A stretch of 64,000 nucleotides of DNA from assembly GCA_023246355.1 (NCBI GenBank), contig JAHFIQ010000003.1, positions 13,968 to 77,967 on the forward strand, given 5' to 3'. Made by a program: the position numbers and the translations under genes. Below the pieces are notes generated by a model that was given only the letters and a program-made list of their open reading frames with translations, ran no database searches and was not told the DNA's origin. How positions within the stretch are numbered: the stretch's first letter is position 1; each line of letters starts with the position of its first letter. The stretch is from Candidatus Uhrbacteria bacterium. GTDB taxonomy: Bacteria; Patescibacteriota; Patescibacteriia; UBA9934; GWF2-40-263. Shown piece after piece: positions 9,546-21,012 of the stretch.

Positions 9546-9635
9546 GGTAGAATAGGTAGATAAGGTATTTCCGAATTCGATTTCTAAGATTTTTTCCACC
9601 TCGTCCACCTTATCTCCCTCACTGCCCATGTTCTT

Positions 9636-10310
9636 ATGCCTACCCTCTACGTTATTGGAACTCCCATCGGGAATCTACAGGACCTCAGTGAGCGTGCAAA
9701 AACGACTCTCGCGTCTGTTGATGTTGTTCTGTGTGAGGACACCCGTGTGACCTCAAAATTATTGAGTGCCTTTGATATCCATGTTCCGACTCTGTCGTAT
9801 CACCAACACTCAGGCGCATTCAAGACAGAGAAAATTATTGCGCTGCTTGAAGGTGAAAAAAACCTTGCCCTTGTGACAGATGCTGGCACGCCGGGAATCT
9901 CTGATCCTGGTGGAAGAATTGTGGAAGAACTCGTTGAACATTTTGGCGAGGAGCTCACGATCACACCCATTCCTGGTGCATGCGCCGCTGTGACAGCGCT
10001 GTCGATTGCTGGCGTTCCTGCGGATGAGTTTGTGTTTCTCGGATTTCCTCCGCATAAGCGAGGACGGCAGTCTTTTTTTGAACGCATCTTTTTGACACAC
10101 TCAACCGTGGTATTTTACGAGAGCACACACCGAATTCTGAAAACGCTTGGCGAGCTCGCCACAAGAATGCCAGATCGCAAACTCGTTGTCTGCCGCGAAC
10201 TCACCAAAATGTATGAAACGATTTATCGCGGTACGGCTTCTGAGGTGACAGCCAAGCTTGAATCCAGTAGCATCAAGGGAGAATTTGTCATCGTTGTATC
10301 GCCCCTATGA
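9636..10310 (+). CDS. rsmI: 16S rRNA (cytidine1402-2'-O)-methyltransferase
   Basis: N-terminus MPTLYVIGTPIGNLQDLSERA and tetrapyrrole-methylase-like fold motifs (ALVTDAGTPGISDPG). Confidence 0.85.
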   Translation: MPTLYVIGTPIGNLQDLSERAKTTLASVDVVLCEDTRVTSKLLSAFDIHVPTLSYHQHSGAFKTEKIIALLEGEKNLALVTDAGTPGISDPGGRIVEELVEHFGEELTITPIPGACAAVTALSIAGVPADEFVFLGFPPHKRGRQSFFERIFLTHSTVVFYESTHRILKTLGELATRMPDRKLVVCRELTKMYETIYRGTASEVTAKLESSSIKGEFVIVVSPL

Positions 10311-11743
10311 ACCGTTCCTACATCACCACCACGCTTCCCTACGTCAACGCCAAACCACATATTGGTTTTGCCCTTGAGATTGTGCAAGCAGATGTGCTGG
10401 CTCGTGTGTTTCGTTTGAAAGGGTCAGAAGTGATTTTTAATACCGGGACGGACGAACACGGACAAAAAATTTACGAACGTGCGGTCGCCGAAGGAAAAGA
10501 TCCTCAGACCTATGTGGACGAGTATGCAGCGAAATTTGATGCACTCAAATCCGCGTTGAATCTCAGCTACACACATTTCATCCGCACCAGCGATCCCGCA
10601 CACAAAAAAGCGGCTCAGGAATTTTGGACACGTTGTGAAACGCAAGGCGACATTTACAAGAGTCGGTACCAGGTGAAGTACTGCGTGGGGTGTGAACTCG
10701 AAAAAACAGAATCAGAACTTGTGGACGGACATTGTTCGGTTCACCCAAACATGATTCTCGAGTTGCGCGATGAGGAGAATTATTTTTTTCGATGGTCCAA
10801 GTATCAAGAGAAGCTGCTGGCTCTGTACAAGCAGCGTCCTGACTTTGTTGTCCCAGAGCATCGTCTGAAGGAGATCCGTACGTTTGTGGAAGGAGGGTTG
10901 AATGACTTCAGCATCTCACGACTCAAAGAAAAAATGCCGTGGGGGGTGAGCGTGCCAGGGGATGAAGATCATGTGATGTACGTCTGGTTTGATGCGCTCG
11001 TCAATTATATTTCCACGCTCGGTTGGCCGGATGAGAGTGGCGAGTTTGCTTTTTGGCCAGGCGTGCAAGTTGCCGGCAAAGATAATTTGCGTCAGCAGTC
11101 CGCGATGTGGCAGGCCATGCTGATGTCGGCCGGCGTGGAGCCATCAAAACAGATTTTTATTCATGGTTTTATCACCTCTGATGGACAGAAGATGAGCAAG
11201 AGTCTTGGAAATGTGGTGGATCCATTTGAACTGGCGACCGAGTACGGGACAGACGCACTTCGGTATTATTTACTTCGAGAGATTCCGTCAAGTGAAGACG
11301 GCGACTTCTCCCGTGCGCGCATGGAAGAGCGCTATGCAGAGCTGGCAAATCAGCTGGGCAATCTTGTGAGTCGCGTGGCAGCCATGGCGGTCAAGTATTT
11401 TGATGGCAACCTCGATGAAGTGAAGATGGACTGGATGCCTCTCTATCAAAAACTTGGTGCTGCGATCGAGCAGTATGATTTCAAATCGTACCTCGATCAA
11501 GTGTTTGAGGTGGTCGCACAGGCAAATGATCTGGTGGACAAAAAATCTCCCTTCAAACTTGTGAAGGAAGACGAAGCGGCCGCGAAGGCTGTTCTCTCAC
11601 AGCTCTCTGTGATGATCCGTTTCGTCGGCCAAGCGCTTGCCCCGTTTCTTCCACAGACGAGCGAGGAAATTCTCCGTCGCTATGGTAAAGTTGTACTAGT
11701 AGGTGAATCACTTTTTCCCCGTCGCGACTCCTCGTCCACCTAA
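10307..11743 (+). CDS. metG: methionyl-tRNA synthetase (short form, no C-terminal tRNA-binding extension)
   Basis: HIGH-type motif (PYVNAKPHIGFALE), KMSKS, Zn-knuckle CVGCE...C. 4-nt overlap with rsmI. Confidence 0.9.
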   Translation: MNRSYITTTLPYVNAKPHIGFALEIVQADVLARVFRLKGSEVIFNTGTDEHGQKIYERAVAEGKDPQTYVDEYAAKFDALKSALNLSYTHFIRTSDPAHKKAAQEFWTRCETQGDIYKSRYQVKYCVGCELEKTESELVDGHCSVHPNMILELRDEENYFFRWSKYQEKLLALYKQRPDFVVPEHRLKEIRTFVEGGLNDFSISRLKEKMPWGVSVPGDEDHVMYVWFDALVNYISTLGWPDESGEFAFWPGVQVAGKDNLRQQSAMWQAMLMSAGVEPSKQIFIHGFITSDGQKMSKSLGNVVDPFELATEYGTDALRYYLLREIPSSEDGDFSRARMEERYAELANQLGNLVSRVAAMAVKYFDGNLDEVKMDWMPLYQKLGAAIEQYDFKSYLDQVFEVVAQANDLVDKKSPFKLVKEDEAAAKAVLSQLSVMIRFVGQALAPFLPQTSEEILRRYGKVVLVGESLFPRRDSSST

Positions 11744-11772
11744 TCTCCCTTCGCCATCTTTTCCACCTCACT

Positions 11773-18537: not shown

Positions 18538-20052
18538 ATGACAACCAAAACACATATCATCGACGCACTGAAGTCAGCCTTGGAGAACTATCACGTCGAA
18601 GTGAAACAAGAAGAAGTCGGAACCGTGTTGTCTGTGGGTGACGGCACGGCACGTATGTCAGGACTTACCCATGCCAAGGCGTCAGAGATGCTTGAATTTT
18701 CTGGCGGGGTTTTTGGCGTCGCCCTGAACCTTGAAGAAGACGGCGTAGGCGCGGTCATTCTTGGCGACGCCTCAAAGATCAAGGAAGGGGACACCGTGAA
18801 AACCACCGGTCGTATTTTGTCTGTGGCGATTTCCGATGATGTCGTAGGCCGTGTGCTTGATCCACTCGGCAATCCGATTGATGGAAAAGGCAAGCTCAAT
18901 GCGAAAACCTTTTTTCCGATTGAAAAAATCGCGCCAGGCGTGATGACACGAAAATCAGTTGGTGTGCCGTTGCAAACGGGCATCAAAGCGATCGACTCGA
19001 TGATTCCCATTGGTCGCGGACAGCGCGAGCTGATTATTGGCGATCGTCAGACAGGAAAGACCGCCATCGCGATTGACACAATCATCAACCAGAAAGGACA
19101 GAACGTGAAGTGCATTTATGTCGCGATTGGGCAGAAAGAATCCAAGATCGCCAAGATCGTAGCCAGGCTTGAAGAAGCAGGCGCCATGGAATACACGACC
19201 GTCGTGGTCGCTGGCGCTTCTGATCCAGCCGCACTTTCCTACATCGCGCCGTTCACCGGCTGCACCATCGGGGAATATTTTATGGCGAAGGGCGAGGATG
19301 CGCTGGTGATCTACGACGACCTTTCCAAACAAGCCTGGGCGTATCGCGAAATTTCGCTGTTACTGCGCCGTCCACCAGGACGTGAAGCTTATCCTGGTGA
19401 TGTCTTTTATTTGCACTCACGTTTGCTTGAGCGTGCGGCTCGTCTCAACGAAGAAAACGGTGGAGGATCCTTGACCGCGCTTCCGATCATCGAAACACAG
19501 GCAGGTGATGTCAGTGCCTACATCCCGACAAACGTCATCTCGATTACAGACGGACAAATTTATCTTGAAACAGATTTGTTTTATCGCGGGATCCGTCCAG
19601 CCCTGAACGTCGGACTTTCTGTCTCACGCGTAGGTTCTGCGGCTCAGACCAAGGCCATGAAAAAAGTCGCGGGAAAATTGCGACTTGAACTCGCGCAATT
19701 CCGTGAGCTTGAGGCGTTCGCACAGTTTGCCACAGACTTGGATGCAGGGACACGGCAACAAATCGAACGTGGACGCCGTCTGACTGAGCTGTTGAAACAG
19801 CCTCAATATCATCCTCTTCCATTTGAAGTACAGGTTGCGTCGATCTATGCCGCGATCAATGGATGTTTGGATGCAATCGCTCCTGAGCGAATCGTGGAAT
19901 GGGAAGAGAAATTTCAGACGTATCTGGAAAGCTCGGGCACAGAAGTCATGGAGCAGCTCAAAAAAGAAAAAGCGTTGAATGATGAGATTGAAGCTGGTCT
20001 TAAAAAATTGATCCAGGATTTTAATTCCACCTTTGCCACCTCATCTACCTAA
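18538..20052 (+). CDS. atpA: F0F1 ATP synthase subunit alpha
   Basis: Walker A GDRQTGKT; conserved alpha-subunit blocks. Confidence 0.95.
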
Positions 20053-20064
20053 TCCACCTTCCGT

Positions 20065-20967
20065 GTGGCAGTCCAAACACGCGCCATCAAACGTCGGATC
20101 AAGTCCGTCAAGAATACACGCAAGATCACCAAGGCCATGGAGTTGGTTGCGGCGAGTAAAATGCGCAAGGCGGTCAACTTCGTGCTGGCCAGTCGTCCCT
20201 ATTCTAAACTTGCCTGGAGCACCATTCTCTCGATCGGCACACGGGTGGACACAAGTTTGCATCCGTTACTTGCTCGCCACGATGAAGTGAAACGCGTGTT
20301 GCTCATCCTCATCACCTCTGATCGAGGACTGGCGGGTGGATTCAATACGAACATCCTTCGAAAAACGCGTGAGGAGATTCGGTCGTTTGGTGAAGACGTT
20401 GAACTGCAGACGATCTGCATTGGCAAACGTGGCGCGGATGCCATGAAACGACTTAAGCTCCCGGTCATGGCTAGCTTTGTGGAGATTACCAACAACACAA
20501 AGTTTGAGGAAGTCCTGCCAATCGGAAGGCTCGTGATAGATGAATTTACAAAAGGATCGTTTGATAAAGTCCTTGTGGCGTACACGGATTTCGTGAGTGC
20601 CATCACTCAGAAGCCTTTGATCATGCAGTTGTTGCCGCTTCAAAGAGAGGTGGCGGAGGTGGACAAGGTGGAAGAGGTAGCCGCAGGCTTCAGCCTGCGT
20701 TCGTCAACTGAACTCACCTTTGAACCTTCTCCAAACGCGGTCCTCGATTCTATGCTTCCCCGACTCGTTGAAACCATGGTGTATCAAGCCGTGCTCGAAT
20801 CCGCTGCCTCTGAACATTCCAGTCGCATGATGGCGATGCGATCTGCATCCGATGCCGCAGGGGATATGATCGACGACCTCACATTCACCTTTAACCAAGC
20901 GCGTCAGGCCGGCATCACCCAGGAGATCGCTGAAATTTCTTCCGGTAAAGCAGCTTTAGAAAATTAG
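20065..20967 (+). CDS. atpG: F0F1 ATP synthase subunit gamma (GTG start)
   Basis: N-terminal MAVQTRAIKRRIKSVKNTRKITKAMELVAASKMRKA and C-terminal helix ITQEIAEISSGKAALE. Confidence 0.9.
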   Translation: MAVQTRAIKRRIKSVKNTRKITKAMELVAASKMRKAVNFVLASRPYSKLAWSTILSIGTRVDTSLHPLLARHDEVKRVLLILITSDRGLAGGFNTNILRKTREEIRSFGEDVELQTICIGKRGADAMKRLKLPVMASFVEITNNTKFEEVLPIGRLVIDEFTKGSFDKVLVAYTDFVSAITQKPLIMQLLPLQREVAEVDKVEEVAAGFSLRSSTELTFEPSPNAVLDSMLPRLVETMVYQAVLESAASEHSSRMMAMRSASDAAGDMIDDLTFTFNQARQAGITQEIAEISSGKAALEN

Positions 20968-21012
20968 TTCTCCTAATCCTTCTACCACCTACCACCCATT
21001 CCCTACAACCTT

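Follow-up and report, generated by a model that had tools for sequence, protein, structure and literature searches.

The closest described counterpart of the elements reported here is the TAACTGA heptamer of marine Beggiatoaceae and some Cyanobacteria and Bacteroidetes (MacGregor 2015, PMC4679880). It occurs in sets of two to six copies that mostly face a start codon and end about 1 nt away from it, and S1, cold-shock proteins (Csp) and CsrA have been proposed as binders; some sets overlap the end of the upstream open reading frame (ORF), interior copies are mostly reversed, and Shine-Dalgarno (SD) sequences are rare (PMC4679880). The elements in question here are C/T-rich, largely G-free tandem arrays of 7-9-nt units that recur between cistrons in a 64,000-nt stretch of bacterial DNA (hereafter the window), part of the 168.7-kb metagenome contig ena:ERZ27276474:k141_1963465. 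Similarity of AtpD, AtpG and GroEL places the host among Candidatus Uhrbacteria, within the Patescibacteria or candidate phyla radiation (CPR). The arrays resemble the TAACTGA repeats in their tandem sets, their layout, their overlap with upstream ORFs and the rarity of SD sequences. However, TAACTGA is an exact heptamer, whereas the arrays consist of degenerate 7-9-mers with the core CCACCT or AACCTA, are free of G, fall into several unit families per genome, occur in a CPR host, and can form a stop-to-start hairpin with an inverse copy. A second analogue is provided by the short tandemly repeated repetitive (STRR) heptamers of Cyanobacteria, which form intercistronic hairpins, for example between hupS and hupL, with a proposed role in stability or coupling (PMC2670836). 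Tandem units of about 7 bp, dispersal and lineage specificity are common to both; period 9 dominates here, however, most copies are of single orientation and unstructured, and the phylum is another. With tandem units of about 7 nt, an intergenic position facing a start, overlap with the upstream ORF and few SD sequences, the arrays have the architectural features of this start-proximal kind of short tandem direct repeat (STRR/TAACTGA), a known but functionally unproven class. Since the unit sequence differs from TAACTGA, they represent the same kind of element in another sequence family. A search of the literature on intergenic tandem repeats in CPR/Patescibacteria found no description of such arrays.

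Two further systems help to delimit the arrays. In Escherichia coli, the atpB-atpE intercistronic region reportedly carries a pyrimidine-rich, S1-dependent enhancer, and there as here an unstructured pyrimidine-rich tract lies directly before the start, in both cases at the atpB-atpE junction. The E. coli enhancer, unlike the arrays, works together with an SD sequence and belongs to no tandem repeat family. By this analogy the arrays probably work like S1-dependent pyrimidine-rich enhancers. Mycobacterial interspersed repetitive units (MIRU) are said to be 46-101 bp long and to contain small ORFs; they are likewise tandem and intercistronic, with ends that overlap the flanking stop and start codons, but at 7-9 nt the units of the arrays are far outside that size range.

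An earlier note on this DNA had drawn attention to seven C/T-rich stretches and one inverse copy, all of which are where it placed them. The G-free runs are slightly longer than it had quoted (9604-9623, 12268-12299, 13117-13165, 17274-17322, 20036-20062 and 20968-21014); the run at 11735-11774 holds one G, and that of the inverted copy is 9524-9570. Taken as G-free runs, the elements measure 20-49 nt. Three such runs of at least 40 nt occur in the window, against 0.08 expected from first-order Markov simulations, in which the maximum was one. The note had proposed comparing the motif with shuffled sequence and looking for it outside this single region: arrays of the form (ACCT N3-6) repeated three or more times number four against 0.145 in shuffles, and the family recurs on another contig of the same assembly (locus L209) and in related Uhrbacteria. 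Its view of a dispersed repeat family reused between cistrons, supplying stop codons and adjoining the next start, is borne out as well. A repeat search recovered two families. One (D2) comprises the copies at 9599, 11730, 17277 and 20030, with 20/21 nt shared between 9599 and 11730; the other (D3) comprises those at 12268, 13132, 20984 and 26591, with 22/23 nt shared between 26591 and 12268. The unit is a nonamer, C[C/T]ACCT+NAT, alongside a second, related family of 7-8-mers, AACCTAC; an array holds 3-6 degenerate copies. In the unit logo the core C[C/T]ACCT is conserved and the 3-nt linker is variable. Tandem Repeats Finder (TRF) reported periods of 7-9 with 2.7-4 copies, and the distance from CCT to CCT is 9 nt in 31 of 58 intervals, 8 nt in nine and 7 nt in eight. 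The word YACCTWA is not over-represented window-wide (10 occurrences vs 8 expected), and nine of the ten matches fall in array spacers. No further copy of the family was found in the 17 kb directly flanking the window.

The array region comprises two operons, in which gene identities rest on Pfam matches. The first, rsmI-metG-cvpA-tatD, ends at a bidirectional terminator (13165-13184); the second contains an atpI-like gene followed by atpB, E, F, H, A, G, D and C, and the sigma-70 scan places a promoter-like site at 16158-16186 ahead of the atpI-like gene. In the same scan no promoter-like site appears in any array, which rules out the arrays as internal promoters. Six genes of the window have an adjoining array, rsmI, cvpA, tatD, atpE, atpG and atpD. 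Ahead of rsmI, the array CCACCTCG TCCACCTTA TCTCCCTCA (9595..9623, + strand, D2) stops 12 nt short of the ATG at 9636. An inverted nonamer copy, purine-rich on the mRNA, lies upstream of it (9534..9567, - strand; TRF period 9, 3.7 copies). This copy overlaps the TAA (9543-9545) that ends the DUF3179 gene 8688..9545, and it is the 5' arm of a hairpin in which 9595-9619 is the other arm. All other arrays of the two operons described in this paragraph lie on the + strand. The metG-cvpA array (11730..11772, D2) covers the last codons of metG and its TAA at 11741-11743 and abuts the cvpA ATG at 11773. The next, of the AACCTAC subfamily (12268..12297, D3), covers the cvpA TAA at 12274-12276, abuts the tatD ATG at 12298, is G-free from stop to start and has a minimum free energy (MFE) of -0.2 kcal/mol. 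At the end of tatD, the array 13117..13160 (D3) covers the TAA at 13138-13140. In the atp operon, a nonamer array of four units (17274..17320) covers the atpB TAA at 17288-17290 and abuts the atpE ATG at 17321, again G-free from stop to start; another nonamer array (20026..20062, D2) covers the atpA TAA at 20050-20052 and ends 2 nt before the atpG GTG at 20065; and a 45-nt G-free array (20968..21012, D3) fills the atpG-atpD spacer and abuts the atpD ATG at 21013, the atpG stop TAG (20965-20967) lying directly before the array and outside it.

The five stop codons that the earlier note had read within arrays are correct in each case (MetG SST-TAA, CvpA TTT-TAA, TatD PTP-TAA, AtpB SIT-TAA and AtpA SST-TAA). 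Its statement that the repeat ends just before the next ATG holds for the rsmI, cvpA, tatD, atpE, atpG and atpD arrays, which lie 0-12 nt from a start, and fails for the array after tatD, which runs into the intrinsic terminator at 13165-13184; at atpG the array does adjoin the start, but that start is the GTG and not an ATG. An alignment of 13 homologues backs GTG 20065 as the atpG start, giving a protein of 300 aa, while the public call uses an internal ATG 24 codons later (276 aa). The strand bias seen by the note is likewise only partly upheld: non-coding copies almost always carry the C/T strand on the mRNA, while ORF-internal copies occur in both orientations, reversed in atpG and in nusA (L094) and grpE (L101) of relatives, and forward in a helicase ORF and in rsmA (L209). 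In a count over the non-coding DNA of the clade, the C/T strand is the mRNA strand in each of the 16 single arrays, 14 of which end 0-12 nt before a start.

Pyrimidines dominate eight of the nine short spacers inside operons of the window, in which G makes up about 5% as tallied from the spacer sequences. Of five operon-internal spacers, three have no G after the stop codon until that of the next ATG; in a fourth the first one stands 2 nt ahead of a GTG start, and the fifth holds one G. Because the arrays are G-free, they offer no stable structure, no SD-like sequence and no ATG, GTG or TTG in any frame. Single arrays are accordingly unstructured, with MFEs of 0 to -4 kcal/mol that are no better than those of shuffles. 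Two spacers, however, form hairpins. One is the inverted pair ahead of rsmI, whose arms are 89% complementary over 27 nt (pair I7) and which can indeed fold, as had been suggested (9536-9619, -29 kcal/mol, z -2.1). The other is a strong hairpin between atpE and atpF (17540..17605, + strand, -38.8 kcal/mol, z -5.8). Its 5' arm, (GGTAGAC)x4, follows the atpE stop without a gap and has CTACC, in inverse form, in common with the family; 9 nt separate the end of the 3' arm from the atpF start at 17615. Folding of sense and antisense RNA was compared for six hairpin arrays, with no consistent gain on the sense strand, and these comparisons thus give no wobble-pair evidence for selection at the RNA level.

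The arrays stand in a genome whose start codons carry little of the usual signal. The 53 ATG starts analysed in the window have no purine-rich signal ahead of them, and their leaders are depleted in G from -30 to -3, so that the host is effectively an organism without SD, as the earlier note had assumed; GGAGG occurs in four of 68 window leaders. The arrays themselves are the opposite of an SD sequence, which is purine-rich and lies 4-13 nt upstream of the start, in being pyrimidine-rich and of the same sense as the anti-SD. Before the 53 starts, information is confined to -1, where T stands in 81% (1.13 bits), and to -2, where C or G is favoured. Under a simpler ORF-based gene call, with loci L004-L083 for comparison, T precedes ATG in 84% of cases in the window, 73% in close Uhrbacteria loci, 64% in other CPR and 18% in non-CPR, and short co-directional spacers contain 13-17% G in CPR loci vs 23% in non-CPR. 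Extended pairing of U-AUG with A37 of the initiator tRNA is a recognised interaction, and T at -1 fits such pairing in an SD-independent organism. The preference persists in ATGA stop-start overlaps, where it requires that the last sense codon be NTA. Most internal genes overlap or abut the preceding gene. A TANNNT hexamer lies 6-9 nt before the start in eight of 27 candidate first genes (at 8-9 nt in seven of them), compared with 4.7% of random positions, a placement of -10 boxes that suggests leaderless or near-leaderless mRNAs. The hexamers take the forms TATAAT, TATACT, TAGAAT, TACAAT and similar, ahead of the starts at 390, 3166, 4948, 27525 and 45216 on the + strand and 41192, 51348 and 56181 on the - strand.

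A canonical 16S rRNA 3' tail reads ...GAUCACCUCCUU / ...CACCUCCUU, and the GGAGG at the frameshift site of release factor 2 (RF2) works via the canonical anti-SD. Such a +1 frameshift site, CTGGAGGTTA-CTT-TGA-C with its internal GGAGG, is present in prfB of three loci of the clade (L094, 11355-11430; L209, of the same assembly as the window, ~12300-12380; L210, ~12600-12680). The ribosome therefore probably still has an anti-SD but seldom uses it for initiation. No 16S rRNA 3' end was found in the loci examined when searched with AAGTCGTAACAAGGTA at up to two mismatches, and the anti-SD is read from the prfB site. As this site argues for a canonical anti-SD, pairing of the arrays with 16S rRNA is unlikely. 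The likeness to the 16S tail on which the earlier note had remarked comes down to a shared CACCT/ACCTCC, with no demonstrated meaning. In the wider group, about half of Parcubacteria 16S genes are reported to be without an anti-SD motif, and CPR bacteria keep a shortened bS1 of three to four domains (PMC9297842).

Comparison with relatives indicates both conservation and turnover. In GCA_964359095.1 (L086/L210), whose AtpG is 84% identical to that of the window, the orthologous atpB-atpE array is identical at 29 of 31 positions, against no more than 42% identity (n=583) at four-fold degenerate sites, which points to selection or concerted evolution. The atpA-atpG array of the same genome is longer, with another number of units, and a run of N lies inside it (~4340-4440), where assembly or scaffolding broke within the tandem repeat; its atpG also carries the equivalent of the inverse linker copy. 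In GCA_005801925.1 (L087; AtpG 80% identical), spacers of the atp operon are 1-3 nt throughout, and in both relatives the atpG-atpD gap is 1 nt, so that the 45-nt array of the window is absent. Since orthologous spacers can be as short as 1-3 nt, arrays are gained and lost. The metG-cvpA junction of L087, however, keeps a CCACCT array. There, MetG and CvpA are called as one 670-aa protein (L087 282-2294) because the array at the junction lacks an in-frame stop; this could be either a real fusion or read-through, or CvpA may start at an internal GTG.

Within the clade, at least seven loci, drawn from five or more source assemblies or contigs, have retained the motif, and in relatives arrays adjoin nusA, groES, groEL, prfB, dnaK and probably mreB. 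A metagenome scan with a 22-nt pattern of two units brought up for the most part coding repeats and unrelated minisatellites of perfect 9-mers, and was informative for only four loci: arrays abut the ATG of nusA, groES and prfB in L094 and that of dnaK in L101, in L127 an array precedes the probable start of mreB, and in L111 an array after a stop codon is followed by a terminator, as at 13117-13160 of the window. The inverse copies in nusA and grpE noted above lie in coding sequence. On L209, arrays occur in the groES 5' untranslated region (UTR), in the groES-groEL spacer and inside rsmA, and the groES-groEL spacer, ACCTAAAACCTACCACCTACACCC, is nearly identical to the copies at 12270 and 26593 of the window. 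Four unit families coexist in the genome of L210, CCACCT, AACCTAC, CTACTTC and ACGCTAC, each adjoining starts. Upstream of groES, a conserved CIRCE-like inverted repeat (controlling inverted repeat of chaperone expression), TTAGCAGTC-N9-GACTGCTAG, is found in L094, L209, L210 and L211, with some first half-sites reading TTAGCACTC; in four of four relatives the groES leader 3' of CIRCE lacks G or, in L209, has just one, whether or not it contains an array. In rsmA/ksgA, an in-frame G-free array occupies the same place with different units in two genomes (CCACCT in L209, 15539-15584; CTACTTC in L210, 15570-15612).

To place the arrays in a wider frame, 80 AtpD loci and the window were surveyed for arrays of period 6-11, counted per kb by region class, with an approximate CPR/non-CPR split based on record titles. 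Array density in CPR was 1.89 per kb in co-directional, 1.17 in convergent and 0.46 in divergent spacers and 0.09 in coding sequence; in non-CPR it was 0.2-0.3 in all spacer classes and ~0.04 in coding sequence. Relative to within-region shuffles, intergenic arrays numbered 136 vs 2.3 in CPR (~60-fold) and 5 vs 0.7 in non-CPR. Unit sequences vary between genomes and within a genome. Many CPR arrays are inverted pairs that reach from stop to start, with medians of 3 nt between the stop and the 5' arm and 12.5 nt between the 3' arm and the start (for example L005 9898-9978, L011 9900-9981, and others in L030, L036 and L079). The G-poor arm adjoins the start in 16 of 21 inverted pairs; the order with the G-rich arm first is invariant under reverse complementation, and it is therefore silent on gene orientation.

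Taken together, we tentatively suggest, at a little under an even chance, that the arrays serve as a landing or re-initiation tract, i.e., as the leader of a translation initiation or coupling mode that does not use SD. An array would form an open single-stranded tract from the stop codon, or the end of the 5' UTR, to the next start, along which a terminating or newly bound ribosome could reach the first start codon, preferably with U at -1, in the manner of initiation without SD pairing. A general binder of single-stranded RNA, either bS1 or a cold-shock protein, may assist. Where an inverse copy lies upstream, the resulting stop-to-start hairpin might tie initiation at the downstream gene to translation of the upstream one, or might protect the upstream segment of the mRNA. 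Most likely, replication slippage and the copying of sequence from locus to locus create the arrays and alter their length, with selection holding their composition and core; such an origin implies quick gain and loss, and would explain the tandem structure, the differences in unit number and the in-frame insertions. Among the functions put forward in the earlier note, a translation enhancer or coupling role thus fares best, as judged from the anatomy of the elements. Extending it to the CPR at large is doubtful: lineage-specific arrays would there be a general intercistronic and 5'-UTR initiation device, open or masked by a hairpin, and the CCACCU nonamer, under purifying selection, would recruit ribosomes with a near-obligatory U at -1.

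Several observations weigh against a role in initiation. Arrays are dispensable at the very junctions where the two relatives have gaps of 1-3 nt (L087) or 1 nt (L086 atpG-atpD), two of them (window 13117-13160 and that of L111) precede terminators and not starts, and the ORF-internal copies in both orientations attest to spread at the DNA level that is independent of initiation. Proximity to starts is itself weak evidence, because in a compact genome a co-directional spacer always precedes a start. Nearly all genes of the array region lie on one strand, so that sense bias and DNA-strand bias are not fully separable in the window; the single copy beside a - strand gene (58288-58302) is inverse, and over all CPR loci the deficit of G on the sense strand of single arrays is only weak (48 vs 34). 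Conservation of the CCACCT core is not explained by a pure need for absence of structure and of G, and the several unit families of a clade genome, all adjoining starts, argue against a single sequence-specific partner.

The main rival holds that the arrays are neutral or selfish by-products of slippage and ectopic copying, tolerated in spacers and linkers and devoid of any role in expression. It accommodates the turnover well: sister species differ at orthologous junctions (45 vs 1 nt at atpG-atpD, unit number at atpA-atpG and the assembly gap there), arrays are inserted in frame into ORFs, unrelated unit families coexist in a genome, and the ~60-fold intergenic enrichment in CPR could reflect a lineage-wide peculiarity of replication or repair. 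It does not fit the conservation, orientation and G-freeness of the arrays. The atpB-atpE array is 94% conserved while neutral sites are saturated at 42%, core positions are kept while the 3-nt linker varies, the non-coding copies of the clade are strictly sense-oriented and G-free, and divergent spacers are depleted (0.46 vs 1.89 per kb in co-directional ones, CPR loci and window together). We therefore consider slippage as the whole explanation unlikely, although not to be dismissed. The conserved hexamer core, the variable linker and the 9-nt spacing in 31 of 58 intervals would also be expected of sites for a sequence-specific regulator or mRNA-stability factor (Era, KhpA/B, Csp, PNPase or a small RNA) that reads CCACCU every 9 nt. 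The KH domain of Era binds GAUCACCUCC, which the units resemble, and the motif persists in the seven or more clade loci; the same idea has been put forward for the TAACTGA repeats (PMC4679880). This explanation is rather improbable given that L086/L210 has at least four unit families in equal positions and that more distant Uhrbacteria use unrelated units.

The remaining candidates account for less. Like Rho utilization (rut) sites, the arrays are C-rich, G-poor and unstructured with spaced YC dimers (CC or TC), and two of them lie directly upstream of terminator hairpins at operon ends, as might suit Rho loading for polarity or help in termination. However, typical rut sites span ~60-80 nt and the arrays only 25-49 nt, most abut starts, including those in the groES and prfB 5' UTRs and at the dnaK start, where termination would be counter-productive; a rut function is thus very unlikely. 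A tblastn search found no match to Rho in the sequence examined, which covers part of the genome. Lower still in probability is a mobile element of the repetitive extragenic palindromic (REP) or miniature inverted-repeat (MITE) type, spread by a transposase. Such an element would account for dispersed near-identical copies (20/21 for 9599 and 11730, 22/23 for 12268 and 26591) in both orientations and within ORFs, and REP sequences and their mosaics (BIME) are also short, dispersed repeats of intra-operon spacers in both orientations. REP units, however, are imperfect palindromes mobilised by RAYT, and the earlier label 'REP-like' does not hold, as the units here are non-palindromic and a single array shows no folding; terminal inverted repeats and target-site duplications are absent, no RAYT or other transposase gene appears in the gene tables of the window and flanks (~100 kb of the genome), and neither REP nor MITE has such a degenerate tandem structure. 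Scarcely credible, finally, is a novel ribosome-binding site that pairs with an altered 16S tail (AGGUGG/UAGGU), even though a period of 8-9 nt always puts one unit at an SD-like distance and roughly half of the 16S genes of Parcubacteria reportedly have no anti-SD motif (PMC9297842). The prfB frameshift site with its GGAGG implies a canonical anti-SD, no single rRNA tail could pair with all of the unit families found in one genome, and units often abut the start at 0-nt spacing.

The proposed role of the arrays in initiation or coupling bears on a process that is essentially unstudied in CPR, whose ribosomes are reduced and in part of the group lack an anti-SD motif. The host appears to mix leaderless-type promoters at many first genes, stop-start overlaps with U at -1 at most internal genes, and G-free arrays wherever a spacer is longer, among them spacers ahead of the ATP synthase genes and, in relatives, ahead of chaperone genes. 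Should they indeed promote initiation or couple it, the arrays would offer a compact, readily spotted sign that a gene starts without SD, and could improve the calling of start codons in CPR, as the missed GTG of atpG and the MetG-CvpA fusion call illustrate. If they are only products of slippage, they would still account for gaps in assemblies and for low-complexity stretches inserted in frame in CPR proteins.

Some further copies and weaker relatives occur in the window. In the variable linker of atpG, an inverse purine copy (20646..20678, - strand; AGAGGTGGC GGAGGTGGA CAAGGTGGA AGAGGT) is in frame and encodes an E/V-rich stretch. A copy of the AACCTAC subfamily (26588..26616, + strand, 22/23 vs 12268) lies within the UvrD/PD-(D/E)XK helicase-nuclease ORF 24463..27393, where it is translated in frame as ...EYNLKPTPYP... 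in an inter-domain linker. The atpD-atpC spacer (22396..22418, + strand; GTCCTATCG GTCCTGTTCG ACCT) is degenerate and pyrimidine-rich, a weak relative and no clear family member, and the short pyrimidine-rich spacer TATCCTGATCCTCCT (49253..49267, + strand), which abuts the ATG at 49268, is a minimal one. The short copy at 58288..58302, which reads ACCTACCTCCTACCA on the + strand, is inverse to the - strand gene 57283..58287; on the mRNA of that gene it becomes GGTAGGAGGTAGGT-ATG, one of only four GGAGG leaders in the window. Known RNA families added nothing at Rfam gathering thresholds in the window, and ARAGORN returned neither tRNA nor tmRNA there.

A hairpin array built of another unit (AGTAGCA) lies in the gap between era and a methyltransferase gene of the same genome (L084 1509-1600, ~69640-69735 in window numbering and thus past its end). 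An element of ~49 nt with the palindrome TTCGTACGTACGAA is present in three copies (44093-44141, 50766-50814 and 51339-51387), upstream of the gene 44157..45155 and on both sides of a PaaX-like regulator gene (50812..51348), and is probably the operator for this regulator. A separate tandem array at 37713-37742, with the unit ACGAATAT/TACGAAT, a period of 8 and 3.8 copies, sits at or just past the 3' end of the - strand gene 37751..38962, and its unit resembles a half-site of the TTCGTACGTACGAA palindrome.

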